Assembly: GCA_038248985.1 (NCBI GenBank)
Contig: JBBRWV010000001.1
Span: 3,091 to 67,090, forward strand
Length of the DNA stretch: 64,000 nucleotides
Direction of reading: 5' to 3'
From: Phycisphaerae bacterium
Lineage (GTDB): Bacteria; Planctomycetota; Phycisphaerae; WQYP01
Below, one piece after another: positions 10,616-36,178 of this stretch. Numbering within the stretch: position 1 is the first letter of the stretch; the number at the start of each line of letters is the position of its first letter. The notes beneath the pieces were generated by a model. That model was not told the origin of the DNA. It made no database searches and saw only the letters and a program-made list of their open reading frames with translations. The translations under genes and the position numbers were made by a program.

Positions 10616-10914
10616 ACGGGGATTATAGCGGAAGTTATGGCGGATGGGGAAAAGGCTGGCGCGGGGAAACTCATCGGGACAGTCGGGGGTGTGGACGGGG
10701 CCGAGGAAGTTTCATGGTCGTTCGGTCAGATCGGAATGGAATTTTGATATTATTTGCTGCAATCGGCGAACGCGGTCGCCGTTAATCATATAATGTGAAG
10801 TTGCTTTTGCGCACGCGAACAGATGGGGTACTAAGCCAGTGTGTTCGGCGCGCGGATCAGCAGCACATGTTCATAAAATTTGATGTGTCTAGAAAAGCGC
10901 AGAACAGGTGATTG

Positions 10915-13383
10915 ATGAAAACTGCCGTGGAGATCGTATCGACGAAGGCTGGACGCGCGAAGAGAGGGTCGATTGTCGGGCGATGTGCGATCGGGCTGGT
11001 GGTTGCGGCAATCGGGGGAAGGGCTTGGGCGGCACCGGAAGATAAATCCGCTGCCAGGGATGCATCTAAGGACGGCGCAGTCAGTGCGGGCTCAGTGAAC
11101 GGTGGCACGGCCAAGCCGGGCGACAAGAGCGCCACCACCAAGCCAGGTGGGCAGGCGACCGCCAGTTCCCTGATTGAAGACCGGGCGGCAAGGAAGCTGC
11201 TCGCCGCCGGTGACGCCCGCCTGGCGATGGATCAGTCGCGCGAGGCGCTGGAGCTCTTTCAACAGGTGGTGGAACGCTATCCGCGTTCCGTGGTCCGTTT
11301 TGAAGCGTTCATGCGGATGGGCAAGTATTACCTGGAAAAGGCGCACGATCCGACCAAGGCCCTGCCGTACTTTGAGCGGTCGGCGGTGGAACTGAACGAG
11401 GATACGGCGATTCGTGGCGAAGCCATGCTGATGGTGGGGCGGTCCTATTATGATCAGAGCAAATGGCAGCAGGCCTTTGCCAGTTTGCGGCTGGTGACGA
11501 TTCAGTATCCCGGCACCGAATTTTCCAACCAGGCTTATTTCTACATTGGCAACGCCCACTACAAGTTGGGGGCCTACAGTCGGGCCATCGAAGCGTTCGG
11601 CAAGGTTGGTACCGCCATCAGCGATACGGATCTGGGCAAGAAATATATGGAGATCGGCAAACGAATGTTCGTGCGCGTCTCTGATCTGGATCTGACGGCC
11701 CTGCAGGAAGGATCCGCAGTTACCGCGACGGTCACCAGTTCCTCGGGTGACTCCGAGACCGTCAAGCTGTCGCGCGTGGGCCCGCCGAACTCACCCAACT
11801 ATCTGGGCGAGCTGGACACCACGCTGGGGGAGGCGGTGAAGGAAGACGGGATGCTGCAGGTGCTGGGGTCGGACAAGGTGATGATCACGTATATGGATGC
11901 GCAGACGGCCTCGAAAGAACTGAATATCGCCCGCAAAACAGAACTGCAGGCCGTGCATAACGGCATCGCCGACTTCATGGATGGGGCGTTCCGCGATCCG
12001 CTCAAGACGGTGGTGGTGGGAAAAACCGCTTACCTGCGGGTGATCGATCTCGATCGCGATATTTCGCCCAAGCCTGACACTGTGCAGGTAAAGGTCGTGG
12101 CGAAACGGCTCGTGAAGAAGGCCTCCACCACCTTGCCCGTCGCAGCAGACGCTGCGGATGCGGCCAAGAAAGTCGAAGGGGCCGAAGTTCCCAAGAAGGA
12201 TGCGTCCGGTGCGGACATTCTTCAGGATGACGATGAACTTCCGGTGTACAAGGTGATAGATGAAGTCACGCTGACGCTGGGGGAGCGCCCGCGCGAAGGC
12301 GTCACGGACAGCGGGGCAATGGGTGCCGAAAAGCCGAAGTCGATGCACACCGGGGTCTTTGGCAACAGCGTGCCGATACTGCCGGGGACGGCGGTGGCGG
12401 GAGACGGGGTTCTTCAGGTGGAGTTTTTTGATCGCATTGAAGTGCAGTATATGGATGAGATCAATTCGTCGGGCAAGCCACGCGAAGTGATCGGGGTATG
12501 CACCGCCGTGGACGGGGCGCTGGCCGATGTGAAGGCTTCCGACCCGAATATCGACAATATTCAGCTGGAATTGCAGACCCGGCTGAAAAAGGCAGAAGCA
12601 CTGACGAACATCGGTCGGATCTACAAGCAATTGGGCTTGAAAGAGCAGGCGGTTCTGCATTTCCGCCAGGGGATCAGCGAGTGCGACGCCTTGGATGCGC
12701 GGGCCCGAAACCTGGGTGGCGAGGTGTTGGAGACCCTGTATGTGCGTTTGTGGAAACTTTACCTGGAATTGGACGAACTGGACCAGGCCGCCAAGATGTG
12801 TCTGCAACTGCAAAAGGATTTTCCCAACAGCCAGTTTGTAGATGAGGCGTTGCTGGGCCTGGGCGAGACGAGTCTGAAGAAGGGCGATGCCGAGAAGGCT
12901 ATTTCCATCTTCAAACGAGTGTTGGATTTGCCGGTCAGCGCGCGCAAGGCCGATGCTTTGTATCAAATCGGCCTCTGCCAAGAGCAGATGGCCCAGCCCA
13001 AGGCCGGCACCTCCGGCGATGCGGCCAAGCCCAACCAAAAGCTGATGGAGTCGGCCTTCCTGAGCTATCAGCAAGTATTCCAGAGATATCCGACCAGCGG
13101 CGTGGCGGGTGATGCCGTCGGAAAAATGGCCGACTATTATCTCGCCGCCAAAGACTACGATCGCGCCATATCCACCCTGCAACAAGCCCTCGATGAATAC
13201 CCTGACGCCCAGTTCACTGATCGCATTTTGTATGACTTTGGACGCAGCCTCTACCGCATGCAGCGGACGGACGAGGCCTTGGCCAAGTTCCGGCAGTTGC
13301 TCAGTGAATATCCCCAGAGCAAATGGGCCAGCAAGGTGAAACCCGTGATCGCGTCACTCGAAAAACGCGGCAAAGGTGATTAG
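10915..13383 (+). CDS. Secreted tetratricopeptide-repeat protein (823 aa) containing repeated beta-modules shared with the downstream giant protein
   Basis: Signal peptide (MMKTAVEIVSTKAGRAKRGSIVGRCAIGLVVAAIGGRAWAAPE). Multiple TPR-like helical repeats, e.g. ALELFQQVVERYP, AYFYIGNAHYKLGAYSRAIEAF and AISTLQQALDEYPD. Repeated modules such as DGMLQVLGSDKVMITYMDAQ and DGVLQVEFFDRIEVQYMDE. Confidence 0.75.
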   Translation: MKTAVEIVSTKAGRAKRGSIVGRCAIGLVVAAIGGRAWAAPEDKSAARDASKDGAVSAGSVNGGTAKPGDKSATTKPGGQATASSLIEDRAARKLLAAGDARLAMDQSREALELFQQVVERYPRSVVRFEAFMRMGKYYLEKAHDPTKALPYFERSAVELNEDTAIRGEAMLMVGRSYYDQSKWQQAFASLRLVTIQYPGTEFSNQAYFYIGNAHYKLGAYSRAIEAFGKVGTAISDTDLGKKYMEIGKRMFVRVSDLDLTALQEGSAVTATVTSSSGDSETVKLSRVGPPNSPNYLGELDTTLGEAVKEDGMLQVLGSDKVMITYMDAQTASKELNIARKTELQAVHNGIADFMDGAFRDPLKTVVVGKTAYLRVIDLDRDISPKPDTVQVKVVAKRLVKKASTTLPVAADAADAAKKVEGAEVPKKDASGADILQDDDELPVYKVIDEVTLTLGERPREGVTDSGAMGAEKPKSMHTGVFGNSVPILPGTAVAGDGVLQVEFFDRIEVQYMDEINSSGKPREVIGVCTAVDGALADVKASDPNIDNIQLELQTRLKKAEALTNIGRIYKQLGLKEQAVLHFRQGISECDALDARARNLGGEVLETLYVRLWKLYLELDELDQAAKMCLQLQKDFPNSQFVDEALLGLGETSLKKGDAEKAISIFKRVLDLPVSARKADALYQIGLCQEQMAQPKAGTSGDAAKPNQKLMESAFLSYQQVFQRYPTSGVAGDAVGKMADYYLAAKDYDRAISTLQQALDEYPDAQFTDRILYDFGRSLYRMQRTDEALAKFRQLLSEYPQSKWASKVKPVIASLEKRGKGD

Positions 13384-13474
13384 GTAAAGTCGCGGCCACC
13401 GGGTCGCGCACACACGGCATTCACATGTTTCCGATTTTCCGACTTACGATTTCCGAGTTGAAAGGCTAAACACG

Positions 13475-16400
13475 ATGGCCCGCAAAAATAAATTCATGAG
13501 CAAAATTACCGCATCGGCCCTCCTGGTCGCACTGATGACCGGCGGCGTCGTTTTGTATCCGGATTTGGTGACGGCCGCGCCGAAGGACGCCAAAACCGTG
13601 CAGACGTCCACCGCTGCCGTGGCCGCCATCAAGACGCTACTCACCCAGATTTCTCAGGCCACTGGCGAAGAATTACGGTCTCCGCTGCGCCTGAAATTGG
13701 TGGACGCATACATGGAGCACGGACGCCCGTTGGAAGCGGCGGCCGAGTTGCAGGTATGGTTGAAGAACAATTCGAAAGCCCCGGAACGCGAGAGGGCTCT
13801 GCTGACCTTGATCAACGCCCAGCGCCAAAGCAATGACTGGGACGGTGCTGCGAGTGTGAGCCGCACATTTATACGCGAATATCCCAAATCCGCATCGCTG
13901 GAGAGCACGTTTTCCGGGTTGGTCGAAATTGCGCGTTATGGGCAGGCCTCCCCCGTAAGCGAAGCCTCCGCCCTGGGCGACTGGGTCGCGGCCAATCCGA
14001 ACGATGCCGCGAACGCCGGACGCATGTTGCGCCAAGCACGTTTACAGGAACAGTCCGGCGCCGTCGCTGAAGCGATTGCCACCCTGCGAAAATTTACCGC
14101 CAAATATCCCAAGGATCCGGCGGCGGGCGATGCCAGTTGGCGCGCGATTTACCTAACCCACGATCGCCTCCGACGCTCCGCCGAAGCCTTTGAGGCCGGT
14201 AAGATTTTCCTGAACGCCAATCCGAAACGCCCCAACAGCAGCAAGGAATGGCAGTGGCTGGGCGACCTGGCCCGTTCCATGGACAATCACCAGGAAGCGA
14301 TTCAGGCCTTCAAGAAGGCTCTGGCGGCTGATCCGACCAATCGAGAGTTGATCAATCAGTTTCAAGATTCTCTATGGCGCACCGGAAATATCCCGGAAAT
14401 GTCCGCGCTCTCCGATTTCATGACCAAGAACCTTCCTTGGGATTCGCAGAATTGGAACCTGCGGCTTGCGCTGGCCAACAAGAGCCTGGACGCCGACGGA
14501 AAAAAGAACGGCCCAGCCGTTCAGGCGGAAATGCTCTCTCTGATCGATAAGGGAGTAAGGCCCGGAGATGCCGCAGGGATCTACGAGCGGGCCTCCCTGG
14601 CTTTGGGAATAGACCCCAAAGTGATCACGGAAACGCTCAAAGGAAAATATGCCCAGGCCAAAAGGGAAGGACGCCGCGAACTGGCGGAACGGATTACGGA
14701 ACTCCTGCGTCGCACGCAGGGGGCGACCATCACCCAGGCCTTTATTGAGACGGAGCTGAAAGAGAATCCGCTCAACAATGGCAACTTGGTGCGCACCTAC
14801 GTTGAGATGTCGGTGAATGATCAGATTTGGGAGACCAACGAAAAGAAACGCACGAAATATGAGCTCGATGGGACAATTAAGAAGATTGCCGAGATTATCA
14901 AACCCTACGCCTATTTGCCTGAATTGCGCAAAGGGATGGAACAGGCCGGGGACGCCCTCCAACGCACCAAGCAGAAAGAATTGACCGTGGTACTGCGGCA
15001 GCAAATCGAAATGCTGTCCCAGACCGAGCTGGCCATACAAGTGGATATCGCCTATCGCGAAGCCCGTCGCGATTGGAAAAAAGCGACCGATGCGCTGACT
15101 ATCCTTTTGAAAGAATCCAAAACCAATCCGGCAGTATTTACCACTCTGGGCCACGATACGATGTGGACCCTGCTGGAACGCACCCCGCCCGAGGGCGTTG
15201 ACAAGGTCCTCGCCTGGTGGGGTGCCCAGGCCGACAGTCGCCCGGATGACATCTGGTTCAACAACATGGTCGGCGACGCATTCCGCCGCTACAAAAAATT
15301 CCCCGAAGCCGTGGTCTTCTATGCCCGCGGCAGCACCGGCACCGTCACCATCGAAAACAGCCAGAACTACAGCCAGGCACTGGGGTCGTTGATTGATGTT
15401 TACAGTTACGAGCTCAAGAAAAATGATGAAGCCGAAAAACTAATCGTCAATTTTGACCGCAACGCAACGTCGTATTCACCCCAGGCACGGCAGGAACGTT
15501 ACCGCCAGTTCGGCGATTTCTACGGCCGCTTGAACGCCCGCGACAAACAAATCAACTACTACCGCAAGGCCGCCGAACTCGGCATGTCCAACACCGGCTA
15601 CGATTCCGTCAAGAACCTCATGATTGTGCTGCCGCCTGCCGAGAGTGTCGCCTACGGTCAGAAGCTGCTGGCCGATGCGGCCTACGACAAATGGTCTCCC
15701 GAAATCGGCCTCATGGTGGCGCACCGCCAGGCCACGGGCTTGAAAGACATGGCCGCCGCCGTCGATACGCTGGCCTTGGCCAATGAAAAGCGCCTGACCA
15801 CCGGCACCTTCGATATGGACAACTGGGGAACATTCCGCGAACTGGTGTCGATGGGCCTTGATCTGGCCGACCCCAAACGCGTGACCGATCCCAAACGCAA
15901 GGAAATGCTCACCGGCATCAAGCCGCTGGAACCCGCCAAGCTGGACCAGCTGCTCGCCCTGGGAATGCAGTGGCTCGGTTCACAGCAGATGCACGAAGTC
16001 GCGCGGGAAATCATCCGCCGGGCCGGCACCTCCGGGGAACGCGGTGCCCAACTGGATATTTTCTCGCAGATTCTGGCACGTACCAAGGCCAATGACGGGT
16101 GGCACTGGGATCGCAACATGGAAATCATCAATGACGAAGTCGCCCGCGGAAATGAGGGGACGGCGTCCACCATGCTCCGATTGCTGCTGAAACAATCCAG
16201 TGGCTACAACGAAGCCGCCCGCTCCGCCGCTCGTTCGCTGCTCCTCAACACCTATAAAAAATTCGGTGAGGATCTGCTGGCGGTCGATGACAAGTCTCCG
16301 ATCGCGCCGCTGCTGAAAGGCGCCAGCTACCTGCGGCTCGGCGAGGAAAAAACCGCCTGGGAGATGTACCAGAAAAACGCGGAACTTTTCGCCCAGAAAA

Positions 16401-19400
16401 TTGACGAAATTCCCAGCGAATACGTGCTTTATATCGGCAATGAACTGGCCACCGGTTCCGATGCCGACCGCGATGTCGCCGAGCAACTGTTGCGCACGTG
16501 GCTGGCCCGCGCCGACAAAATCCAGGGCTTGGAGGGCTCGGTGAAGGCGGCGGTTCAGCTCAAGCTCGCTGACGTCTTCTACTATGGACGCCGCTTTGAC
16601 GTTGCCCGCGCCGAGTACCAATCAGTCATGGACAAGTATCCCGAAACTGCCCAGGCCATCGAAGCGCAGTTCCGCATCGGCGAGTCCTTCATGTACCAGA
16701 AGAACTACGTGGAGGCGACGAAAGTCTTCGAAAAACTGCGGAAAAACAAGGATACCGACATCGCCATCCGCGCGACCTTCATGCAGGGCGTCCTGCAGTA
16801 TGAAACCAACGCCCGCGAAGAAGCCCGGGAAACGTTCAAGGCTGTGCTCGACCTCTCCCCCTCCGAAGAAATCGCCTCCAAAACCCTCTTCCAACTGGCC
16901 TTGATCTACGGCGACGACAACCGCTTCAAAGAAATGTTGGACATGCTCTCGGCCATCGGCAACTACGGCCGCGAAGCCAAACGCTGGCACTCCCCCGGCA
17001 AACCCCTGACCGTCCTCATTCACGATCCGGACATGGCCATCGTTCAGGACGCCCGCTCCGTCCCCGTGCTCGTGACCACGTCCAATGGCGATCGCGAGTT
17101 GATCACGCTCGTTTCCGGCGCCGCCGGCAAGGGCTTCTTTCAGGCCGATCTGCCGACGACCCTGGGTGCCAGCAAACCCAATGACGGAACCCTGCAATTG
17201 CTGGGTTCAGACATCATCACCTATGACTATCCCGACGATTTCAAGGCGAAATTCAAATATGTCCCGCCCCCGCAGGGAAATATCCGCATTGCTGCGGACG
17301 CGACGTTCGCGGTCTCCAACGCCCACATCCAGGAAGAGAGCAAAAGAAGCGCCCTGCAACGCGCCGACAAAGACGGCAAAATCCAACGCCTGTCCGATGA
17401 AGCCAAGGAGTTTCGTGCCAATAACGAAATCAAGCCGGGCAATCCTCTCTACGTCCGCATCGTCGATCCCGACCGCTCCACCAACGTCGGCGTCAATCGC
17501 GTCGAAGTCGTCGCCCGGGCCGGCACCGGCGATACCGTCCGCATGTGGGTAAATGAAACCTCCGCCAACACGGGCATCTTTGAAGGAATGATCAAGACGG
17601 CCGAACGCCCCGCCGAGGCCATCGCTTCCGATAGCTCGCTGGGCAAACTTCCCGGTCTTGCCACCGATAAGGACACTGCCAGTGCGTGGGAGTCGCAACA
17701 CGATGGTCAACCCGGCAAGTGGCTTGCCGCTGACCTCAAAGATGTTTTCTCCATCAAGCAGTTCGCGTTCTCCATGCCTGACGACAAGCAACTCGCTGCG
17801 GCGCGCTTTACCATTGAGTCGTCCAACAACGGTACGTTGTGGACGCCTGTGCTGACGCAGGACAAAGGCAAGATTGCCCACGGACTCACGCTGAATTACG
17901 GTCCGATGCGTCACAAGCACTACGCTTGGAGCAAGGAAAAGGCGAAGTTCGCTGATGCGAAGGCCCCCGAAGATCTCACTTCCTACATCAACACCGTGGC
18001 CACGGCCAAGGTCGCTTCGCTCGACGCCAGCGCCGTCAACACCATGGCCCTGCCCGCCGTCGGCACCGATACCGAAGCGGATGTGCATTCGTTGGTTGGT
18101 TATTTCTTCGTCAACAAAACCGGCGTTCAAACTTTCCACGCCATCACCGGCGATAACGGTTCCGCCGCCCTCGTGATCGACGGCCGCGTAATCGCCGCCG
18201 ACAAGAAAGGCTTCTCGGAATGGGGCGTTGGCGTCGAGTTGACCCGCGGCTGGCACCACTTCGCCGGATTCATCACGTTGCGCGGCGCCTATACCGATCG
18301 CAGCAAGCCCGCCGGTTTCCGTTGCACCCCCATCGACACCTGGGGCGTCGATCAGGCGATGCAATACGCAACAGCCCAGCGCGGCGGTGAGAATGAACCC
18401 ATGCCCGTGCCTTCACTCATTTCCGTGCCCGCCGAGGGAAAACTCAAAGTCGAGGGCGCAACCCTCACGGCTGATTTTTCCGCTGCCCCCATTCCCGGCC
18501 GTCTCTTTCGCGTCCGATTCGAAAAATACAGCGGCGATTTCGTCAGCGTTTCCAACCTGCAAGTCACCGGTGCCGACGGCAAACTCCTTCTGCCCGCCGA
18601 AGGCAGCGTGGTATCCCTCGCCGATGATGACGTACTGCAAGTATCTCCTGGCGAAGACATTTCCGTGAGCTATGCCGATCAGGTCAACACCCGCACCCCC
18701 GGCGAAGCCCGCGCTCTCTCTGGCAAGTTGAAGGCCACCTACTACAACGCCAAAATCGCCGCGATTGCCTACGAGGTAAAATCCACCACTGAAGGCGTGG
18801 AACGTCGCATCAAGGAACTTTACCGGATCGATCCCGGTGATCGCATCATCGCCCACATCACCGATTACGATGAAGACACCTCGCCGGAAATCAACAAGCT
18901 GCAATTCAAGGTACGTTCCGAAAGCGGCGCCGAAGTCGCTCTGGAAGCCACCGAAACCGATGCCACCTCCGGCATCTTCACCAAGGAAATTGAAACTGGC
19001 GAGGGCCTCGGAAAACTCTCCGTGAAACCCGGCGAACGCATCTACCTTATCTATACCGATCGGCAGAACACACAGCCCGGTTCGCGCACCGATCGCGTCG
19101 CTGAACTCTCCGTCGTCAAACCCACCGACGGCCTGGTGAACATCCTGCCCACGCGGGCCGAATTGCCCCCGCCGCCCAAAAAAGATGCCGCCCCCGTATT
19201 CGCCACTGGCGATGGCGTGACCATCGGCGAACCCCGCATAATCTATCTGAAGCCTGAACCCGGGAAGCCCGCGCGTGTGGTGCTCGCCGCCCCGCTCACT
19301 GTCGAAGTCATCGATCAGGATGCCGCCAAGGATTCCCACTCGACGGTGGTGGTGGAAATTACCACGTCTTCCGGCGCCAAATTGAAACTCCCGCTGGAAC

Positions 19401-20965
19401 TCTCAGACCAAACCAGCCAAGGCTCCTGGGGCCACGGTTCCGCCATGGCGGACGGTCGTTTCGTCGGCCAGGCCTTGCTCGTCCTCGGCAAGCCCGATGA
19501 AAACGGCAAGTCCAACACCTCCGTCTCCGTGGAACGTGCACGGCGCCTCCTGGGCGCATGGCGTTACAGCGATGGCGACAATGCCAATTCTGATGCCGGT
19601 TCCGTCAAGGCTCCCGTGCTGCCGATTCTCGGGTCCGACACGATCACTGCGGTCTACAACGATAAGCGTTCAACCAGCGGCGATAACCAGGAACGCAAGT
19701 CCGAAGGACGCATGGTCACCGATGCCACGCTCACGAATCTCGACCGTGGATTCCTCGAACCCGTGGCCACCATTCACCTCGGTGAAAAACTTTACCTCCG
19801 CGTCGAGGATGCCGATCGCGACACCACGGCCGAGCAGGACGAAGTCACCGTGACCCTTACCAGCAACGCCGGCGAGAAACTGGACATCACGTTGAAAGAA
19901 ACCCTGGGTCACTCCGGTACATTCACCGCCGAAGTGCCCACCCATCACGCCACCAAGCCCGACCCTGCCAATGGCACGCTGGATACCAATTTCGGCGACT
20001 CGCTTTCACTGGCCTACGTGGATGACTCGCACACCCAGTCGATGTCACCCATCGAACGCAAACTCAGCATCCAGGTCGCCCTCGGAGCCGATGCAGCGAT
20101 GGCCGCGTTCACCAAGCAGTTCGGCAGCGAGGAAATCGCCGTCGAAACCCAGTTCAAGCTCGCCGAATGCTATTTCGAGATTTTCAAGAGTCAGAATCAA
20201 ATCAAGGCCACCGCCGAGGCCCGCGTCGCCCTCGAATCCGGCCGCGCCATCCTCGCCACCGTCCGTGACAACTACCGCGGCTCCGGGTACGAAGCCCGCG
20301 TGCTCTACCTGCTCGGCGGCTTCCACCAGGAACTCAAGGAACTCGACCAGGCCATCGAATGTTACAACGGCATCATCCGCTCGCATTCCAACAACGCCTT
20401 CGCGCCTGATGCCCAGTACAAACTCGCCCAGTGCTTCGAAGACAAAAATGAGATGGATCGTGCCAGCGAAGAGTATGTGCGGCTGGCCTACACCTACCCC
20501 GATAATCCCCTCATCGCCAAGTGCATGGTCCGCCTGAACGACTACTTCTTCAAGATTAACAAGTTCCAGGTCGCCGCCAACATCTGCGGCCAATTTCTGG
20601 AGCAGTACGGCGAGCATGAACTGGCCCCCAAGATCGCCTTCCGCCAGGGTCAATGCTACTTCAAGGCTGCTGAAACCCCCGTCCGCGAAGGTGAGCCGAA
20701 AACCGATCCGAAGGCTAATTACTTCCTCGCCGCCAAGGCCTTCGATGTACTGGTGGAACGCTACACCGATAGCGACCTGCGTCCCGATGCCATGTTCTGG
20801 GCCGGTCGGGCGTATCATGAGGCCGGTGAGGAAGCCCTGGCGTATCGTCGTTACCGTCGCGTCACCTGGGACTTTCCAGATTCCGATGCCGCACGTTATG
20901 CTCGCGGTCAGTTGACGCTGCCGGCCATGCTCAACGCGGCCAAGGATGATTCCGGCAGCAAGTAA
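13475..20965 (+). CDS. Giant secreted protein (2496 aa): N- and C-terminal TPR arrays, central F5/8 type C (discoidin)-like and PA14-like carbohydrate-binding domains, plus repeated beta-modules
   Basis: Signal peptide (MARKNKFMSKITASALLVALMTGGVVLYPDLVTAAP). Discoidin-like block DKDTASAWESQHDGQPGKWLAADLKDVFSIKQFAFSMP...FTIESSNNGTLW. PA14-like block VGYFFVNKTGVQTFHAITGDNGSAALVIDGRVI...GWHHFAGFITLRGAY. TPR-like C-terminus, e.g. AQYKLAQCFEDKNEMDRASEEY. A recurring module ...G.F.......DG.L...GSD.I...Y.D occurs at least 5 times. Confidence 0.8.
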   Translation: MARKNKFMSKITASALLVALMTGGVVLYPDLVTAAPKDAKTVQTSTAAVAAIKTLLTQISQATGEELRSPLRLKLVDAYMEHGRPLEAAAELQVWLKNNSKAPERERALLTLINAQRQSNDWDGAASVSRTFIREYPKSASLESTFSGLVEIARYGQASPVSEASALGDWVAANPNDAANAGRMLRQARLQEQSGAVAEAIATLRKFTAKYPKDPAAGDASWRAIYLTHDRLRRSAEAFEAGKIFLNANPKRPNSSKEWQWLGDLARSMDNHQEAIQAFKKALAADPTNRELINQFQDSLWRTGNIPEMSALSDFMTKNLPWDSQNWNLRLALANKSLDADGKKNGPAVQAEMLSLIDKGVRPGDAAGIYERASLALGIDPKVITETLKGKYAQAKREGRRELAERITELLRRTQGATITQAFIETELKENPLNNGNLVRTYVEMSVNDQIWETNEKKRTKYELDGTIKKIAEIIKPYAYLPELRKGMEQAGDALQRTKQKELTVVLRQQIEMLSQTELAIQVDIAYREARRDWKKATDALTILLKESKTNPAVFTTLGHDTMWTLLERTPPEGVDKVLAWWGAQADSRPDDIWFNNMVGDAFRRYKKFPEAVVFYARGSTGTVTIENSQNYSQALGSLIDVYSYELKKNDEAEKLIVNFDRNATSYSPQARQERYRQFGDFYGRLNARDKQINYYRKAAELGMSNTGYDSVKNLMIVLPPAESVAYGQKLLADAAYDKWSPEIGLMVAHRQATGLKDMAAAVDTLALANEKRLTTGTFDMDNWGTFRELVSMGLDLADPKRVTDPKRKEMLTGIKPLEPAKLDQLLALGMQWLGSQQMHEVAREIIRRAGTSGERGAQLDIFSQILARTKANDGWHWDRNMEIINDEVARGNEGTASTMLRLLLKQSSGYNEAARSAARSLLLNTYKKFGEDLLAVDDKSPIAPLLKGASYLRLGEEKTAWEMYQKNAELFAQKIDEIPSEYVLYIGNELATGSDADRDVAEQLLRTWLARADKIQGLEGSVKAAVQLKLADVFYYGRRFDVARAEYQSVMDKYPETAQAIEAQFRIGESFMYQKNYVEATKVFEKLRKNKDTDIAIRATFMQGVLQYETNAREEARETFKAVLDLSPSEEIASKTLFQLALIYGDDNRFKEMLDMLSAIGNYGREAKRWHSPGKPLTVLIHDPDMAIVQDARSVPVLVTTSNGDRELITLVSGAAGKGFFQADLPTTLGASKPNDGTLQLLGSDIITYDYPDDFKAKFKYVPPPQGNIRIAADATFAVSNAHIQEESKRSALQRADKDGKIQRLSDEAKEFRANNEIKPGNPLYVRIVDPDRSTNVGVNRVEVVARAGTGDTVRMWVNETSANTGIFEGMIKTAERPAEAIASDSSLGKLPGLATDKDTASAWESQHDGQPGKWLAADLKDVFSIKQFAFSMPDDKQLAAARFTIESSNNGTLWTPVLTQDKGKIAHGLTLNYGPMRHKHYAWSKEKAKFADAKAPEDLTSYINTVATAKVASLDASAVNTMALPAVGTDTEADVHSLVGYFFVNKTGVQTFHAITGDNGSAALVIDGRVIAADKKGFSEWGVGVELTRGWHHFAGFITLRGAYTDRSKPAGFRCTPIDTWGVDQAMQYATAQRGGENEPMPVPSLISVPAEGKLKVEGATLTADFSAAPIPGRLFRVRFEKYSGDFVSVSNLQVTGADGKLLLPAEGSVVSLADDDVLQVSPGEDISVSYADQVNTRTPGEARALSGKLKATYYNAKIAAIAYEVKSTTEGVERRIKELYRIDPGDRIIAHITDYDEDTSPEINKLQFKVRSESGAEVALEATETDATSGIFTKEIETGEGLGKLSVKPGERIYLIYTDRQNTQPGSRTDRVAELSVVKPTDGLVNILPTRAELPPPPKKDAAPVFATGDGVTIGEPRIIYLKPEPGKPARVVLAAPLTVEVIDQDAAKDSHSTVVVEITTSSGAKLKLPLELSDQTSQGSWGHGSAMADGRFVGQALLVLGKPDENGKSNTSVSVERARRLLGAWRYSDGDNANSDAGSVKAPVLPILGSDTITAVYNDKRSTSGDNQERKSEGRMVTDATLTNLDRGFLEPVATIHLGEKLYLRVEDADRDTTAEQDEVTVTLTSNAGEKLDITLKETLGHSGTFTAEVPTHHATKPDPANGTLDTNFGDSLSLAYVDDSHTQSMSPIERKLSIQVALGADAAMAAFTKQFGSEEIAVETQFKLAECYFEIFKSQNQIKATAEARVALESGRAILATVRDNYRGSGYEARVLYLLGGFHQELKELDQAIECYNGIIRSHSNNAFAPDAQYKLAQCFEDKNEMDRASEEYVRLAYTYPDNPLIAKCMVRLNDYFFKINKFQVAANICGQFLEQYGEHELAPKIAFRQGQCYFKAAETPVREGEPKTDPKANYFLAAKAFDVLVERYTDSDLRPDAMFWAGRAYHEAGEEALAYRRYRRVTWDFPDSDAARYARGQLTLPAMLNAAKDDSGSK

Positions 20966-21011
20966 TAGTTTGGATTGAATATCGTTGTGAGTTTATTCGA
21001 GGTTTCCGACC

Positions 21012-21839
21012 ATGAGTTTTCTAATCACACTGGCGCAAGCGGCATCGACTGCGGCCACCCAAGCCGCCTCCAACCCCGCCACCGTCACCCAGACCACCGA
21101 AAACGCCAAGGCTTGGTATGAGTACGGCCTTATCGGCTGGTACTACAACGGTGGCTTCTTCATGATTCCACTCTTCCTTTGCCAGGTCATCGGATTGGCG
21201 ATCATCATTGAACGCATCCTCGCCTATCGCGCGATCTCCATCGATACCTCCGGCTTCCGCGCCAAAATCGCCGCGTTGCTCTCCGGCGGAAAGGTCGATG
21301 ACGCACTGGTGCTCTGCGACACCACCCCCGGCCCGGTCTCCGCGACCATCGCCGTCGGCCTCCGCCGTTTCAAACTCCTTCGCGTCCTCGGTAAACCCGC
21401 CGATCAAATCGAGTCTGAAGTGTCCAAGGCCGTCGATGATTTCGGCGTTCACATCATCGCGATTCTCGAGAAGCATCTCCCGCTCCTCGCGACTGTCACC
21501 GCCCTGGCCCCGCTCTTCGGCTTCATCGGCACCGTGTACGGCATGGTCGAAGCCTTCGATGCCATCACCCAGGCCGCTGGCTCCGGCAACATCATTCTGG
21601 TAACCGCGTCCGGCATCAAGGTGGCGTTGCTCACCACCGTCCTGGGCCTCTGCATCGCCATCCCCGCCCAGTTCTTCTACAACGCCTTCTCCAACCGTGT
21701 CAACGGCTTCGTCCTCGAAGTCGAAGAATCCGCGACGGAGCTGGTCCAGAACCTCGCACTCATGTCGGCTCTGGGCGATTCGGCGATCACGTCGAGCCCC
21801 GCCGACGCCAAGGCAGTTCTAGCGACCACCACGGCCTGA
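21012..21839 (+). CDS. exbB: MotA/TolQ/ExbB proton-channel family protein
   Basis: Three-TM topology with conserved C-terminal region LAPLFGFIGTVYGMVEAF...ALLTTVLGLCIAIPAQFFYN, typical of ExbB/TolQ. Confidence 0.9.
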   Translation: MSFLITLAQAASTAATQAASNPATVTQTTENAKAWYEYGLIGWYYNGGFFMIPLFLCQVIGLAIIIERILAYRAISIDTSGFRAKIAALLSGGKVDDALVLCDTTPGPVSATIAVGLRRFKLLRVLGKPADQIESEVSKAVDDFGVHIIAILEKHLPLLATVTALAPLFGFIGTVYGMVEAFDAITQAAGSGNIILVTASGIKVALLTTVLGLCIAIPAQFFYNAFSNRVNGFVLEVEESATELVQNLALMSALGDSAITSSPADAKAVLATTTA

Positions 21840-21879
21840 AGTGACCTCACACCGCCTGTAAAGAAAGTTTCTCCCCGCT

Positions 21880-22338
21880 ATGTCCATCCCGCGCAAGAAA
21901 AAATCTGCCGTTGAAATCCCGCTCACGTCCACCGCGGACGTGGCGTTTCTGCTGCTCGTGTTTTTCCTGGTGGCGGCCTCCAACGCGGTCGAAAAAGGTG
22001 TGCCGCTCGACCTGCCCAATACCAGCAAAACCCAGGAGAAAAAGAAGTCGGAAAACCTCGAGGTCGGCATCACTGTCGATGCGATCACCCTCGGCGGTGA
22101 GCCTCTGGCCAATGAAAATTCCCTCCAGGAAGTTCTGCGGGCCAAACTCGCCGGCGTTACCGAGCCCTCCCTCCGCGTCGTCGTCGTAACTGCCGCCGCC
22201 GCCGTGGATTACCAACGCTGGACCCGCTTCATCGCCGAAGTGGAAATGGCCGGCGGCATCCCCGCCCCACAGATCGAAGAAGAGGAAACGCGTCCCGCCT
22301 CTGGTAGCGGCCCGGTCGACGGGGGGGAGGCCAATTGA
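21880..22338 (+). CDS. exbD: ExbD/TolR biopolymer transport protein
   Basis: N-terminus EIPLTSTADVAFLLLVFFLV, the ExbD TM with conserved Asp, plus a periplasmic domain. The stop overlaps the start of the next exbD (ATGA at 22335-22338). Confidence 0.85.
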   Translation: MSIPRKKKSAVEIPLTSTADVAFLLLVFFLVAASNAVEKGVPLDLPNTSKTQEKKKSENLEVGITVDAITLGGEPLANENSLQEVLRAKLAGVTEPSLRVVVVTAAAAVDYQRWTRFIAEVEMAGGIPAPQIEEEETRPASGSGPVDGGEAN

Positions 22339-22751
22339 AGATCCAGCGCGCGCAAAGACTTAACGCCACGATCCCCCTCTGCAGCACTGCGGATATCGCC
22401 TTCCTGCTACTGATATTCTTCATCGTGCTCTCCAAGAACGCCAATGAATCCTCGCTCGAATGGCTCCCCGCCGAGTCTCCCCAACTCCTCGTCGACGCGG
22501 ACAACTCCGTCGTCACCGTCATCATCGATAAAAAATATGACGTCTTTGTTAACGGCCACGAGGTCGCGCCCTCCATGGTGAAATCCGTCGTACAGTCTTA
22601 TCTCGGCGACCGCGCGCCGGGCTTACGCAAAGTCCTTTTGAAAATTGATAAAGACGTGCCCGAGCGTGTCTTCGGCAAAGTATTGTTGGATATCGGCGAA
22701 GCCGGCGGTGACATCTTCCGCGCGCTCGATACCGTTTCTGAAAAGAAGTAA
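22335..22751 (+). CDS. exbD: ExbD/TolR biopolymer transport protein (second paralog)
   Basis: N-terminus ATIPLCSTADIAFLLLIFFIVL followed by a periplasmic domain. Translationally coupled to the upstream exbD. Confidence 0.85.
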   Translation: MKIQRAQRLNATIPLCSTADIAFLLLIFFIVLSKNANESSLEWLPAESPQLLVDADNSVVTVIIDKKYDVFVNGHEVAPSMVKSVVQSYLGDRAPGLRKVLLKIDKDVPERVFGKVLLDIGEAGGDIFRALDTVSEKK

Positions 22752-22790
22752 CGATTCGCCGCTCTGGCGGCTGCATTCAGGAGTTTCTAT

Positions 22791-23207
22791 ATGGCGACGA
22801 TCAGCAATCTGAAAACCGGCGTGAAGGGAACCGCCAAAGAGATCCAGGAATTCGTGGCCTCTCTCAAAGGCCGCACACCTGCTGAAGCCATGGGCGTCGT
22901 CGCCCAAAGTCACCTCCTGCAGGCCATTGTCATCTCCGTGCTCGTTCAGGGTGGCATCATGGGGCTATCCTGCGGCATCGCTTATTACAGAGGTGACCCT
23001 CCCGCGCCGGTGGCCCCCGTTATCGTGGCCCCCGCGCCGGCCAACCCCCGGCCCGCCCCCGTACCGGCCGCCACCAACACCGCAGCCACTTCCGCCCCCT
23101 CCGAAGACGCCATCAAGAAAGTCATGAACACCGACATCATCAAACCGGAAGACCAGACCAAAAAAGGCCCCCGCGATGTGGATGACATTCTCAACAACTT
23201 TCGCTGA
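22791..23207 (+). CDS. Membrane-anchored proline-rich protein: TonB/TolA-like N-terminal anchor plus rod, lacking a recognisable C-terminal TonB domain
   Basis: Single TM (LLQAIVISVLVQGGIMGLSCGIAYY) followed by the Pro/Ala-rich segment PPAPVAPVIVAPAPANPRPAPVPAAT and a short charged C-terminus. Position in the operon is that of tonB/tolA. Confidence 0.5.
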   Translation: MATISNLKTGVKGTAKEIQEFVASLKGRTPAEAMGVVAQSHLLQAIVISVLVQGGIMGLSCGIAYYRGDPPAPVAPVIVAPAPANPRPAPVPAATNTAATSAPSEDAIKKVMNTDIIKPEDQTKKGPRDVDDILNNFR

Positions 23208-23604
23208 ACGTGTCTCCCTCCGTGTCCCTTTCCTAACCTCCGACAGGAATTGAATTCTGGAAACGTCACCCTCCCAACCTCGCTTTACCTTCCGCAAGGC
23301 CAGCTCCCTCAAGCCGCCGACCGGTATCGGCCGCCTGTTCACCGGCATCAATAACGCCCTCGAACGTCTCTGGGAGATCAGCAAGCCCTACATCCTGGCC
23401 GTCATCGGTCCGGTCGTAAACCTGGTCACCAAGTCGTTCCGCCGCAATGACAAAGAATGGAACCCCGCCCGGTCCGATGCTTGGTACTATGGCAAACGCG
23501 ATGCCCGCTTCTATCACGGCCTCACCTGGTCCGCCCTCATCCAGGGACTCGTCCTCCTCTGGTTCACGGTCGGCATCGGCCTCACCGGCTGCAATGAATA
23601 CCTG

Positions 23605-24510
23605 ATGCCCGCTGGCGGCGGCACCACCGCCGCCATGGCCAAACAGATGATGAAGGTCAAAAAGGTCAAAATCGTCAAAAAAACCCGGCAGATCGTCAAC
23701 GTCAATTCCCCTATCATTTTTCAGCGGCCGGATATCGACAAAATGATGGAAGAAAAAGTCACCAAAGTTCTCGAGCAGGGCACCGCCAATCTCTACAAGC
23801 AAGGCATGATGGGTTCCGGCAGTGGCGACTCCGCCGGCTTCTCCAGCGGTCGTGGCGTCGGCGAGGTCGGCCTCATCCGCCTCAAGTATTCCGGCGGCGG
23901 AGATTGGGATTCCAACTTCGGCAAAGGTGCCGACAACAATATGCTCTTGGAATACCACCTGCTTTCCGAACAAAAAACCGCCAAGGAATCCAAAGCCATT
24001 CCCATCATTGGCTTCGACGGCCTCAATTCGTATAAGAAATATTACGCACCGCCCATGGTTTACCTTACCGGCTCAAAAGGCCTCGACCTCAGCGACAGAG
24101 AAATCACAACCATCCGCAAATACATCGAGGAAAACCACGGCATGATCTTCGCCGACGCCGCCTCGCCCGCCTGGGGCCGTTCCTTCCGCGAAAACATAAT
24201 GCCCCGGATTCTCCCCGACGTGAAAGCCGTCGCCATCCCCATCGATGACGAAATCTACACCGGGCCCTTCGCGCTCACCTCCATGCCCTACGCCTCGCCC
24301 CATGACCAACCCATGGTCATGCGCGGCTGGAAAATCAACGGCCGCTGGGTCGCCATTTATCACCCCGGCGATATCGGCGATTGCTGGAAAGACGGTCACG
24401 CCGGCGTCTCCGGCGAAACCGCCACCGCCGCCTATGCTCTGGGGGCCAATATCATCTTTTACGCCCATCGCACGTATAATGAATGGCGTACTGAAAATAA
24501 GGTTAAATAA
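23605..24510 (+). CDS. DUF4159-like domain protein. The ORF is open upstream to 23254 and encodes two predicted TM helices, so the start is probably upstream and non-ATG.
   Basis: Blocks IRLKYSGGGDWDSN, PPMVYLTGSKGLDLSDREITTIRKYIEENHGMIFADAA, INGRWVAIYHPGDIGDCWKD and ALGANIIFYAHR fit my recollection of DUF4159 conserved blocks. The frame upstream of ATG 23605 has no stop back to TGA 23251 and encodes ISKPYILAVIGPVVNLV and LTWSALIQGLVLLWFTVGIGL (TM-like). There is no ATG, GTG or TTG in that stretch; only ATT at 23254 and CTG at 23257. Confidence 0.6.
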   Translation: MPAGGGTTAAMAKQMMKVKKVKIVKKTRQIVNVNSPIIFQRPDIDKMMEEKVTKVLEQGTANLYKQGMMGSGSGDSAGFSSGRGVGEVGLIRLKYSGGGDWDSNFGKGADNNMLLEYHLLSEQKTAKESKAIPIIGFDGLNSYKKYYAPPMVYLTGSKGLDLSDREITTIRKYIEENHGMIFADAASPAWGRSFRENIMPRILPDVKAVAIPIDDEIYTGPFALTSMPYASPHDQPMVMRGWKINGRWVAIYHPGDIGDCWKDGHAGVSGETATAAYALGANIIFYAHRTYNEWRTENKVK

Positions 24511-24512
24511 GG

Positions 24513-26159
24513 ATGTCGATGCGTACTTTGCACCGGACAAGACGTTTTTCCCCCGCCCTGCCCGCACTCGCCTTGGCAGCACTCTGCGCCCTCTTCCCGG
24601 CGGCTCAGTCCCCTGCCCGCGCCGATGAACCCGGCCTGCTCTCCAAGGAACGCTGGACCAACCTCACCGAAATCCAGTTCGCCGAACTCAAGTCCGCCGA
24701 AGACACATTCCGTAAAAAAGCCTACACCGCCGCACGTAACGCCTATGAAAAATTCATGACCGTCAACAGCAAGTCCGATGTCGCCACCTATTGCCAGTTG
24801 ATGATGGGCGAATGCCTCCGCCTCAACGGCAAACCCAACGAAGCCATCTCCGACTTTCAGTTCGTCCGCGATCTCGCCGAAGATTCCGATGATGCCAAGT
24901 GGGCCTACCTCCGCATCGCCCAATCCCACCGCCAGGCCGGCAACGCCGAAAAAGCCGCCCTCATCTATAAGGAAATCTTCAAGGACAACGGCACCCACGT
25001 CACCGCCTTCGTTGCCGTCCTCGAACTCGTCGACGTGCTCGAGAGTCAAAACAAACTTCGTGACCGCGCTCCCTATCTCGACGACTTCGCTGAACGCTTT
25101 CTCAAAAAACGCTATGACGGCTGGGCGTATCAACGCGCCATCCACACCCTCGCCTATGAAAAATTGCTCGCCGGTTCGCCCGACGTCGCCTTCACCCTCC
25201 TCAAAACCGTCGAAAAATCCGCCGACGCCGAACGCACCGTTCTCAACATCGGCTCCAACGCCGTCCGCGATCTCAGCACCAAGGAAACCGTCAACCGTCG
25301 CGATGCCCTCGCCGAAGCCCTCACCAACATGGTCATGGCCTGGCTCCGCGAAAATAAGGACCGCACCAACCACCAGGATCTCACCCGCGGCGTCGTCTTC
25401 CTCTACATCAACATCGGCAAGGGCGAAGAGGGTGCCAAGCAGGCCCTCGCCGCGCGCAAAATCTACAGCGATGCCCGCTGGACTCTCGAACTCATGGTCG
25501 ACCTCTACCGCCACGATAAAAAAATGGACAAGGCCGTCGCCACCGCCTCCGAAGCCCGCCGCATCCACAAAGATGCCGACTGGACCCTCGACATGTACGC
25601 CGAACAACTCAAAGACAGCGGCGACCTCGGCCAGGCCGTCTCCGCCTGGGATCTCATGAAGGACCGCAGGCACGCCCTCTTCCGCAGTTCTGATGCCCTC
25701 CGCCACGCCGGAAAAATTACCGAGGCCATCGAACGGCGCCGCAAGATTTCCGAGCTTGACCCTACGGCTGGCTCCGAAGTCGCCATGTGGATCGGTGACG
25801 TGCTGGAGCAATCAGGCAAATACGATGAAGCCATCAAGGAATACCTGCTCGCCCAGAACGAACCGCGGAATCTCTACCAGATTGCCGAATGCAAATCCAA
25901 ACAGAAAAAATACAAGGAAGCCATCGAGCAATACTCCACCATCGCCGCCGCCTTTGAAAAAGAAACTCCCGAGGCCATGTATCGCATGGCCCTCGAGTAC
26001 GAAAAACTCTCCGACACCACCACCGCCATCAATTTCCTCCGCCGCATCTGCCGCACCTTCCCCAAGTCGCAGGCCGCCTCCAGCGCCCACGTCCGCCTGC
26101 AATCCAAATACAAAATCGATGAAACCCTCGGCGGTTCCGAAGGCGACAAGAAAGACTGA
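24513..26159 (+). CDS. Secreted TPR-like repeat protein (548 aa), in CpoB/YbgF-like position at the end of the exbBD cluster
   Basis: Signal peptide (MSMRTLHRTRRFSPALPALALAALCALFPAAQSPARA). TPR-like helical repeats throughout, e.g. AYLRIAQSHRQAGNAEKAALIYKEIF and EAIKEYLLAQNEPRNLYQIAECKSKQKKYKEAIEQY. Start is 3 bp after the DUF4159 stop. Confidence 0.75.
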   Translation: MSMRTLHRTRRFSPALPALALAALCALFPAAQSPARADEPGLLSKERWTNLTEIQFAELKSAEDTFRKKAYTAARNAYEKFMTVNSKSDVATYCQLMMGECLRLNGKPNEAISDFQFVRDLAEDSDDAKWAYLRIAQSHRQAGNAEKAALIYKEIFKDNGTHVTAFVAVLELVDVLESQNKLRDRAPYLDDFAERFLKKRYDGWAYQRAIHTLAYEKLLAGSPDVAFTLLKTVEKSADAERTVLNIGSNAVRDLSTKETVNRRDALAEALTNMVMAWLRENKDRTNHQDLTRGVVFLYINIGKGEEGAKQALAARKIYSDARWTLELMVDLYRHDKKMDKAVATASEARRIHKDADWTLDMYAEQLKDSGDLGQAVSAWDLMKDRRHALFRSSDALRHAGKITEAIERRRKISELDPTAGSEVAMWIGDVLEQSGKYDEAIKEYLLAQNEPRNLYQIAECKSKQKKYKEAIEQYSTIAAAFEKETPEAMYRMALEYEKLSDTTTAINFLRRICRTFPKSQAASSAHVRLQSKYKIDETLGGSEGDKKD

Positions 26160-36171: not shown

Positions 36172-36178
36172 GTGCAAT

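Follow-up and report, generated by a model that had tools for sequence, protein, structure and literature searches.

A conserved eight-gene operon built around an ExbB/ExbD motor, a candidate envelope machine without TonB in Planctomycetota and Verrucomicrobiota

Introduction

What does a proton-driven ExbB/ExbD motor act upon when the genes beside it encode neither TonB nor TolA? The question is raised by a 15-kb cluster of eight genes, g1 through g8, in a 64-kb stretch of Phycisphaerae DNA (contig JBBRWV010000001.1 of GenBank assembly GCA_038248985.1, positions 3,091 to 67,090), referred to below as the window. The cluster combines one exbB and two exbD genes (g3 to g5) with genes for three tetratricopeptide repeat (TPR) proteins (g1, g2 and g8) and for two membrane-anchored proteins, g6 and g7, the latter ending in a DUF4159 domain. 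A first reading of this DNA, made from the sequence alone and without database searches, took the cluster for an undescribed envelope machine driven by the proton-motive force (PMF). As discussed in the following sections, the eight genes form one conserved unit in Planctomycetota and Verrucomicrobiota, and they probably encode one PMF-driven envelope machine that acts, by way of two anchored proteins other than TonB, on a scaffold of TPR and glycan-binding proteins.

Conservation of the operon in two phyla

The case for a single unit rests on gene order. A profile of g7 was scanned against one genome per GTDB species, and 379 species proved to encode a relative; the counts given here come from the best 80 of those 379, whose open reading frames (ORFs) were searched with the window proteins. 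Planctomycetota account for 43 of the 80 loci and Verrucomicrobiota for 35, the remaining two being a metagenome-assembled genome (MAG) labelled Omnitrophota and an unclassified sequence. The motor genes lie upstream of g7 in the order g3-g4-g5 in 60 of the 62 loci with enough sequence, and g8 follows g7 directly in 61 of 70, with 6 more in which it is downstream and not adjacent. A g2 homologue of 2300-2900 aa stands directly upstream of exbB in 40 of the 52 testable loci and at other spacing in a further 5. The gap between g5 and g7 is filled by an ORF of about 150-200 codons in essentially all related loci, and partial g1-like ORFs appear at the 5' edge of many. The complete eight-gene order is also found in the closest metagenomic relatives (L002 and L003), in Haloferula (L004) and in a Phycisphaera MAG (L005 and L006), and P0328, among the more divergent representatives, is surrounded by the same operon on a 0.98-Mb contig (longest contig 7.7 Mb). 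A 4-nt overlap between the two exbD genes is common to L002, L004, L005 and the annotated locus L088.

The flanking genes, by contrast, differ among L002, L004, L005 and other loci that carry the operon, and because the same order recurs between unrelated flanks the arrangement lies far beyond chance. The sequence-only reading had named a lack of joint conservation of the DUF4159 and TPR genes with exbBD as evidence that would refute it, and in these loci the genes are conserved together. The operon appears to be single-copy in the genomes scanned. Relatives closest to that of the window come from metagenome contigs at 55-60% identity, named homologues being more distant (about 37-43%), and the g7 family as a whole comprises 271 clusters at 50% identity in an exhaustive profile search (E ≤ 1e-30). 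A search for g2 homologues, dominated by generic TPR words, returned 13 proteins.

The species labels of several lake MAGs among these loci (L057, L058, L034, L045, L031) look like nearest-name assignments, among them Akkermansia muciniphila, Prosthecobacter debontii and Planctomicrobium piriforme. The label 'A. muciniphila' on L058 in particular is distrusted because its pattern of ORF lengths is that of L057, labelled 'P. debontii'.

Layout of the cluster and corrected gene calls

All eight genes exist where they had first been read, as co-directional plus-strand ORFs spanning 10912-26159 (Table 1). Two details of the first calls had to be revised. The overlap between g4 and g5, described as ATGA, is in fact TTGA, the TTG start of g5 running into the TGA stop of g4. 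The larger change concerns g7, whose start had been placed at ATG 23605. The reading frame is open from 23254, and 23605 is the first ATG, GTG or TTG within it; that said, the extended translation is covered over 100% of its length by the closest homologues (415 aa, 59-61% identity), the CTG at 23257 aligns with Met1 of the homologues, and an AGGA lies 8 nt upstream. Starting at this CTG leaves g7 49 bp behind g6 and gives it an N-terminal membrane anchor. The intergenic gaps from g1 to g8 then become 91, 46, 40, -4, 39, 49 and 2 bp. Gene callers that admit only ATG, GTG and TTG shorten g7 to 301 aa, and both L001 and the public call P0001 show it cut in this way. Scans for promoters and terminators inside the cluster returned the same counts as shuffled sequence, and Rfam and tRNA scans of the 64-kb window gave no matches.

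Table 1. Genes of the operon and the predicted glycan-binding module, in window coordinates
Feature	Coordinates	Strand	Description
g1	10912..13383	+	823 aa; Pfam TPR_6 and YfiO; NCBIfam BamD-like
g2	13475..20965	+	2496 aa; Pfam TPR arrays at three places and F5_F8_type_C at aa 1389-1474
g2 glycan-binding module (predicted)	17618..18574	+	aa ~1382-1700; discoidin/CBM32 with PA14-like insert
g3	21012..21839	+	275 aa; MotA_ExbB PF01618
g4	21880..22338	+	152 aa; ExbD PF02472, paralogue 1
g5	22335..22751	+	138 aa; ExbD PF02472, paralogue 2
g6	22791..23207	+	138 aa; no Pfam/NCBIfam family
g7	23257..24510	+	417 aa; DUF4159 PF13709; CTG start
g8	24513..26159	+	548 aa; Pfam TPR_6 and TPR_12; last gene of operon

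The motor

The identification of g3, g4 and g5 as an ExbB/ExbD motor holds both at the level of protein family and in the residues of the proton path. g3 matches its Pfam family at 85.9 bits (cut-off 22.9), and g4 and g5 match theirs at 70.1 and 49.2 bits. When g3 is aligned to E. coli TolQ over residues 59-240, the Thr of GTVxG, a second transmembrane (TM) Thr, that of TM3, and the AIPA sequence are all kept. The TM Asp of g4 aligns with D25 of E. coli ExbD, and g5 keeps its Asp within the TM motif STADIAFLLL, an instance of the pattern STAD(I/V)AFLLL seen in the ExbD paralogues. Judged by these intact catalytic residues, the motor looks functional.

Its affinities lean towards Tol. The best solved relatives of g3 are E. 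coli TolQ first and then ExbB, and among NCBIfam models the tolQ model (TIGR02796) gives 96 bits against a cut-off of 221 while exbB gives 68, both under the equivalog cut-offs. The tolR model (TIGR02801) gives 38.3 and 18.4 bits for the two ExbD paralogues, against a cut-off of 127.3.

Two anchored proteins in the place of TonB and TolA

g6 has no match in Pfam or NCBIfam, and what can be said of it comes from an alignment of 73 sequences. The N-terminus is basic and predicted to be cytoplasmic; a conserved segment, LxxFLxxLKGKSPxEMLG, leads into one TM helix; a linker of 30-80 aa rich in Pro, Ala and Thr follows; and the protein ends in a conserved peptide of about 25 aa, LG(V/I)xE..K.A.P..NPLE..D.(F/L)L.(G/D)L(E/K). 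This order of segments amounts to a TonB-like topology without the C-terminal domain of TonB or TolA.

g7 matches DUF4159 at 86.8 bits (cut-off 25.9), and its last TM helix is bracketed by two motifs that are invariant or nearly so among 36 aligned homologues, NP..D.AWYYG on the predicted cytoplasmic side and GC.E.Y.MPAGGG on the far, predicted periplasmic side. Beyond the second motif come a basic, Lys-rich box, a Gly-rich linker and a highly conserved C-terminal domain containing YHPGDIGD.W.DGH. The AF2 model of g7 has a helix at residues 84-109, low confidence from 110 to 200 and an alpha/beta domain at 205-418 with pLDDT 80-97. In a Foldseek search the top match of that domain was 4i66 (E 2.8e-10, TM-score 0.80 normalised to target length), a structural-genomics DUF4159 entry, Hoch_4089 of Haliangium ochraceum; weaker matches were to GATase and ThuA-like folds, and no vWA domain was among the matches. 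g7 thus shares its domain family and fold with 4i66, whereas the anchor in the membrane, the conserved motifs on either side of it and the association with a motor set the g7 subfamily apart. In longer homologues there are five TM helices, the last of them preceded by a basic loop, and on the strength of that count and that loop the DUF4159 domain is placed, provisionally, in the periplasm.

The TPR proteins and a glycan-binding module

The three TPR proteins have N-termini that read like signal peptides (g1, for example, ...GLVVAAIGGRAWA/AP). g1 is a shorter paralogue of g2, both being built of TPRs, beta repeats and TPRs again. In g1 two beta repeats of about 90 aa (aa 244-336 and 365-520) lie between TPR blocks at the two ends; in g2 the TPR arrays are N-terminal, middle and C-terminal, and a central stalk has at least five beta repeats. 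Against TIGR02795, the model of the YbgF/CpoB repeat, g1 scores 118 and g2 152 bits and g8 only 76 (cut-off 90.1), and g1 also scores 90.6 bits as BamD; the cut-off of TIGR02795 is passed by g1 and g2 only through the summing of five repeats in each. The full-length CpoB model NF008068 gives 69 and 52 bits where 383 would be required. The equivalent of g8 in L088 has no Pfam match.

In g2 a module interrupts the second beta repeat, leaving its halves at aa 1319-1381 and 1715-1738, and a glycan-binding role of the CBM32 and PA14-like type is proposed for this module from its predicted fold. An AF2 model of aa 1375-1700 has discoidin/CBM32 ends at pLDDT 80-90 and a PA14-like middle at about 61-67, and Foldseek matches it to CBM32, galactose oxidase and F-lectin folds as well as to the PA14 domains of MpAFP, Flo1 and GH31 proteins (E 1e-5 to 1e-3). 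Pfam detects no PA14 in g2, even in the isolated fragment at E ≤ 1, yet two homologues, P0129 and P0132, have a Pfam PA14 at the colinear position. Of the composition first claimed for this giant protein, TPR, discoidin and PA14, the first two are thus confirmed by Pfam, and the third is visible only in the fold and in the homologues. The region aa 1173-2186 (16991-20032) is a triple nesting, PA14-like within CBM32/discoidin within the ~90-aa beta repeat, and aa 2035-2191, in one of the repeat regions, match an anammox S-layer glycoprotein model, NF052345, at 50.5 bits, far under its cut-off.

Parts that the operon lacks

Neither Pfam nor NCBIfam finds a TonB_C, TolA_C, TolB, Pal/OmpA, Plug or TonB_dep_Rec domain in g1-g8. 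The domains of TonB_C, TolB, Pal and TonB-dependent transporters (TBDTs) are likewise missing from the other large ORFs scanned in the 64-kb window and from the annotated neighbours of L002, L004, L005 and L088, so the absence of a TonB C-terminal domain and of a TonB-dependent receiver, first remarked for the cluster, extends to the window and to four annotated relatives. The other ORFs of the window are ordinary chromosomal ones, among them ComEC, glycosyltransferases, an SSF transporter, an ABC/FtsX pair, ribosomal protein S1, FolD, TyrRS and an imuA-imuB-dnaE2-like cassette.

Two resemblances had been put forward at the outset. The order motor, tether, DUF4159, TPR was said to mirror Tol-Pal; the likeness is one of gene position, which stands, and not of components, there being no TolA_C, TolB or Pal domain. 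The Agl-Glt apparatus of Myxococcus was said to be echoed by the combination of TPR proteins and a TolQR-like motor; no Glt homologues were detected in the operon (GltC model NF033756, 22.5 bits against 450; Tgl, 20.9 against 225), and nothing tested speaks for this echo. The accompanying statement that bacteria of the Planctomycetes-Verrucomicrobia-Chlamydiae (PVC) group lack a Tol-Pal system is too broad. The catalogue of Williams-Jones et al. (PMC12204202) lists Tol-Pal genes in other PVC lineages, with tolQ-tolR-tolA-tolB-pal for Chlamydia and tolB-pal for Lentisphaerae and Kiritimatiella, and in its supplement records pal as absent only for Planctomycetes; earlier surveys quoted in that paper place TonB in several phyla including Verrucomicrobia, Planctomycetes not being listed there.

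A proposed machine

How might these parts work together? In the model favoured here, a pentamer of g3 around a g4/g5 ExbD heterodimer would form a PMF-driven motor of 5:2 stoichiometry, a ratio we infer because the solved ExbBD and TolQR complexes are analogous. g6 and g7, as N-in proteins of the inner membrane, would dock on the motor in the place of TonB and TolA. g6 would serve as a Pro/Ala-rich tether ending in its short conserved peptide, and g7 as the transducer, with the motifs flanking the last TM helix, the basic box, the flexible Gly-rich linker and the DUF4159 alpha/beta head. The two would pass conformational work to a scaffold, presumably periplasmic or close to the outer membrane, of the secreted CpoB/BamD-type TPR proteins g1, g2 and g8, in which a stalk of Ig-like beta repeats in g2 would carry the CBM32 and PA14 module for glycan binding. 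TPR domains of co-chaperones bind short C-terminal peptides, and by analogy the C-terminal peptide of g6 is a candidate ligand for the TPR proteins of the operon.

If such a machine exists, a housekeeping role in the envelope like that of Tol-Pal, in linking the outer membrane to the wall or in remodelling, is tentatively put first, because of the invariance of the operon, its apparent single copy, its unrelated flanks, the TolQ-like motor and the CpoB-type repeats. Energised capture of glycans and their import into the periplasm without a TBDT is possible, if on the unlikely side, and is favoured by the CBM32/PA14 module and by the verrucomicrobial precedent of mucin import linked to ExbBD. 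Some other role is unlikely, and surface adhesion or motility improbable.

Relation to known systems

The closest parallel is in print. Williams-Jones et al. (Mol Biol Evol 2025, PMC12204202) describe, in the text and supplement of their paper, PVC loci of the form TPR-tolQ-tolR-tolR followed by a 'vWA' transducer tethered by a TM helix, and propose PMF force transduction. These provide a precedent for ExbBD-type motors that drive alpha/beta proteins other than TonB, each anchored by a TM helix, beside TPR genes in PVC bacteria. The word 'undescribed' in the sequence-only reading therefore goes too far, while the notion that the PMF drives an envelope machine lacking TonB is a reasonable one, and its principle had already been proposed for this related type of locus. 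One of the vWA transducers of Tichowtungia aerotolerans, T1, was rebuilt from the supplement, found as an exact match to P0136, and its locus read (L087); the order there is TPR ... TPR, a 262-aa gene, ExbB, ExbD, ExbD, T1, T2. Common to the vWA loci and the window operon are the upstream TPR genes, exbB, two different exbD genes, two N-anchored proteins, a disordered linker with an alpha/beta C-terminal domain, and the absence of TonB and TolA; common too is the proposed principle of a 5:2 PMF motor driving a transducer that is not TonB. Behind the TM helix both have a Lys-rich box, which reads MPVKVQNLQKK in T1, VKVQKVIKKK in the consensus of the g7 family and MMKVKKVKIVKK in the window g7.

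The differences are as plain. The C-terminal domain of g7 is DUF4159, with a GATase1/ThuA-like fold; the anchored pair consists here of two unlike proteins, the stub g6 and the DUF4159 protein g7, and in Tichowtungia of paralogues; the motors are distant (ExbB 65.6 bits, ExbD about 20 bits); and the window operon ends in an additional TPR gene and also encodes the TPR/CBM protein of 2500 aa. Homology between g7 and the Tichowtungia transducers was considered and set aside: hhalign gives it a probability of 0.8%, Pfam finds no DUF4159 in T1 and no vWA in g7, phmmer, queried with T1, returns no homologue from the window or from 87 loci, and the fold matches of g7 lack vWA. Because the architecture is the same, the transducer head unrelated and the motors distant, the operon is a sibling variant of the vWA-transducer class, set apart from it on the evidence of the paper's text and supplement and of the Tichowtungia locus. 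The Tichowtungia locus itself (L087; CP047593.1, 3743679-3765109) also holds a 781-aa vWA paralogue (P0234), two TPR proteins of about 900 aa, and secreted proteins of 110 and 262 aa upstream of exbB, and so exceeds the motor-plus-transducer core given in the text of PMC12204202.

With TonB-ExbB-ExbD the operon shares the ExbB and ExbD families and their proton-path residues, together with the TonB-like topology and Pro-rich linker of g6; it differs in having no TonB C-terminal domain, no SHLS signature, no nearby TBDT and two ExbD paralogues. With Tol-Pal and CpoB it shares an ExbB closest to TolQ, the order motor, tether, periplasmic protein, TPR, and repeats of the TPR_6/YbgF type; it differs in lacking TolA_C, TolB and Pal, and only the repeat-summed YbgF domain model is above its cut-off. 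g6 resembles TolA in its TM helix and Pro/Ala linker, but ends in a conserved tail of ~25 aa with no domain match.

The nearest experimentally studied analogue is MUL1 of Akkermansia (Davey et al. 2023, as cited in PMC12570417 and PMC13174399), a locus that joins ExbB/ExbD to Mul1A and Mul1B and is genetically necessary for importing and using a glycoprotein. The RefSeq product table gives Amuc_0543-0545 as hypothetical, 0546 as ExbD, 0547 as hypothetical and 0548 as ExbB, followed by endonuclease III; Mul1A is Amuc_0544 and Mul1B is Amuc_0543. Orthology was rejected in a comparison by annotation, the table holding six genes in another order, none of which carries a DUF4159 or TPR annotation. 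Read on the minus strand, the locus (ExbB-x-ExbD-x-Mul1A-Mul1B) could mimic g3-g8, an unsupported idea and quite an unlikely one, and MUL1 is at most a functional analogue. Aquatic Akkermansiaceae, in which the window operon is common, reportedly do not conserve MUL1 (PMC13174399). According to a 2026 paper in ISME J, MUL1-type ExbBD loci could not be predicted in aquatic Akkermansiaceae; the MAGs L016-L085, from aquatic Akkermansiaceae and Verrucomicrobiales, carry the present operon. The operon may be a better candidate for glycan handling in that group, or a confounder for such surveys.

In Fibrobacter succinogenes, FSU_2396-2403 (OmpA, TPR, TPR, ExbB, ExbD, ExbD, TonB) likewise has two TPR genes upstream of exbB-exbD-exbD, and the envelope complex to which the Fibrobacter TPR proteins belong also contains PA14 'fibro-slime' proteins and proteins active on glycans (PMC6851124). 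That cluster differs in its canonical TonB-family protein, its OmpA gene, the lack of DUF4159 and the phylum. All told, membership in the Ton, Tol-Pal, Agl-Glt, vWA-transducer and MUL1 systems fails in each case on at least one defining feature.

Alternative explanations

Several observations weigh against the machine proposed here. A TonB encoded elsewhere in the genome could still use the g3-g5 motor, and the operon encodes no outer-membrane component. Neither g6 nor g7 has the conserved SHLS/His signature of TonB; a His does precede the TM helix in both window proteins, but it is not conserved, FYHG of g7 corresponding to a family consensus of KLNQS and SH of g6 to SSQL, SDL or SNL in homologues. 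Taken by itself, the positive-inside rule would read the Lys-rich box after the TM helix of g7 as a sign that the DUF4159 domain is cytoplasmic. In six loci the core of motor, g6 and g7 has no g2, no g8 or neither of them next to it: g2 is missing beside the motor in L036, L044, L045, L049 and L071, and g8 in L044, L071 and L079. The CBM32/PA14 module, finally, is not universal, P0127 being short in this region and the Haloferula protein having no listed F5_F8 domain.

Against this background, how do other explanations of the locus fare? The operon could be a true replacement for Tol-Pal in lineages without Pal, with g6 as a TolA-like tether and g7 and the CpoB-like TPR proteins linking the outer membrane to the wall and aiding division. 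The higher score of g3 on tolQ than on exbB and its TolQ-like solved relatives suit this idea, as do the TIGR02795 and BamD matches, the terminal TPR gene that closes the operon as cpoB does, the very broad, apparently single-copy and flank-independent conservation, and the reported absence of Pal from Planctomycetes in the supplement of PMC12204202. It is nonetheless somewhat unlikely: a TolA C-terminal domain, a TolB beta-propeller and an OmpA-like peptidoglycan-binding lipoprotein are all missing from g1-g8, the tolQ, tolR and full-length CpoB scores (96/221, 38/127 and 69/383 bits) are far below their cut-offs, the TIGR02795 score sums many generic TPR_6 repeats, the CBM32/PA14 module is foreign to Tol-Pal, and the catalogue of PMC12204202 has TolB-Pal in other PVC phyla. 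A nutrient-acquisition machine is also conceivable, in which the motor energises capture and import of polysaccharides or glycoproteins without a TBDT; it would be what selfish uptake is in other bacteria, in a PVC version, and would be related in function to MUL1 of Akkermansia. The two carbohydrate-binding folds of g2 point that way; Verrucomicrobiota accumulate periplasmic glycans, in A. muciniphila in a mul-dependent manner with ExbB/ExbD part of MUL1 (PMC13174399), mul1A mutants cannot use mucin (PMC12570417), and in Fibrobacter cellulose induces the TPR-TPR-ExbB-ExbD-ExbD-TonB genes (PMC6851124). Yet no consistent neighbours of the carbohydrate-active enzyme, sulfatase or transporter kind occur in L002, L004, L005, L088 or the window, the operon looks single-copy and invariant where uptake loci are usually multiple and variable, some orthologues lack the CBM module, the gene order of MUL1 differs and Mul1A and Mul1B are annotated as hypothetical rather than as DUF4159 or TPR proteins, and no outer-membrane pore is encoded, all of which makes this explanation unlikely.

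An ordinary Ton system, with TonB and receptors elsewhere and the TPR, g6 and DUF4159 genes as mere syntenic accessories, would be less surprising in that exbB-exbD-exbD clusters apart from tonB are common. TonB is, moreover, reported in Verrucomicrobia among the lists in PMC12204202. On the other side, both phyla keep the eight-gene order, the 4-nt exbD overlap and gaps of 2-91 bp included, and g6 and g7 have invariant juxtamembrane motifs; the order and the motifs speak for a physical partnership. Planctomycetes are not on the TonB lists of that paper, yet the operon is universal among the matches there, and no TBDT lies nearby in the five annotated contexts; this account is improbable. Least probable is an apparatus for gliding or adhesion akin to Agl-Glt. 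The combination of a TolQR-like motor, whose two TolR-like subunits differ, with TPR proteins and a PA14 domain of the adhesin type would fit one, and the authors of PMC12204202 speculate in their text on gliding for the related vWA loci; against it stand the Glt scores given above and the presence of the operon in many planktonic lineages. We know of no report of gliding for most of those lineages.

Compositional skew of the window

Apart from the operon, the window stands out for a GC skew of extreme saw-tooth shape. In windows of 1-2 kb the skew starts at +0.50 on the left, declines almost linearly until it is -0.57 at 32-34 kb, steps at ~34 kb to -0.3 over 34-39 kb, jumps to +0.35 at ~39.5-40 kb and then falls again to -0.28 at 64 kb. 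It is carried by third codon positions, plus-strand GC3 skew going from +0.80 at the left end to about -0.85/-0.87 near 30-34 kb, and it follows the plus strand whatever the orientation of the genes. An independent Logan assembly (L001) differs from the window at 1 base in 9465, and relatives with the same operon (L002, L004, L005) have a flat skew (|skew| < 0.21). The shape resembles the replication 'N-domains' of mammalian genomes. The amplitude is, to our knowledge, far above any bacterial replication skew.

The jump at ~39.5 kb sits in an intergenic region just after the dnaE2-like gene. Composition switches within 39380-39620, from C-rich runs (gacccccc..., ccccccccc) and A9 to the left of ~39540 to a G-rich ggcgacggcggtgctg... 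on the right, and the gene blocks converge there, mainly on the plus strand to the left and mainly on the minus strand from ~40.9 kb. The plus-strand stretch 34158-39415, which ends at the switch, has the look of an imuA-imuB-dnaE2-type mutagenesis cassette: a RecA/SulA-like ORF (34158-34733) and a Y-family-polymerase-like ORF within 33961-36171, these two by translation only, and then a 1232-aa homologue of DNA polymerase III alpha with PHP, pol3_alpha, finger, HHH_6 and OB domains. Two small plus-strand ORFs lie to the right of the switch. For 39847-40462 the overlapping minus-strand frame, the frame scanned, has no Pfam match; 40561-40867 reads as a signal peptide together with YHICC.SC, a Cys-rich motif reminiscent of metal-binding domains of the YHS/TRASH kind.

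Implications

How the outer membrane is energised in Planctomycetota and many Verrucomicrobiota is poorly understood, and both phyla take large polymers into the periplasm. The operon is a compact and strictly syntenic candidate for the energising of outer-membrane processes, its parts open to deletion and tagging in existing genetic systems. It may widen the set of proteins that 5:2 ExbBD-type motors drive, and the g7 subfamily makes DUF4159, a domain with a solved structure and no known function, a candidate head for a force transducer. A bolder reading, itself quite unlikely, takes the operon for an ancestral and near-universal trans-envelope machine of both phyla, a third branch beside Ton and Tol that powers uptake of macromolecular glycans. 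If that were true, a DUF4159-headed transducer and a peptide-tailed tether would replace TonB and TolA, and the operon would be the energiser of transporter-independent 'selfish' uptake into an enlarged periplasm.

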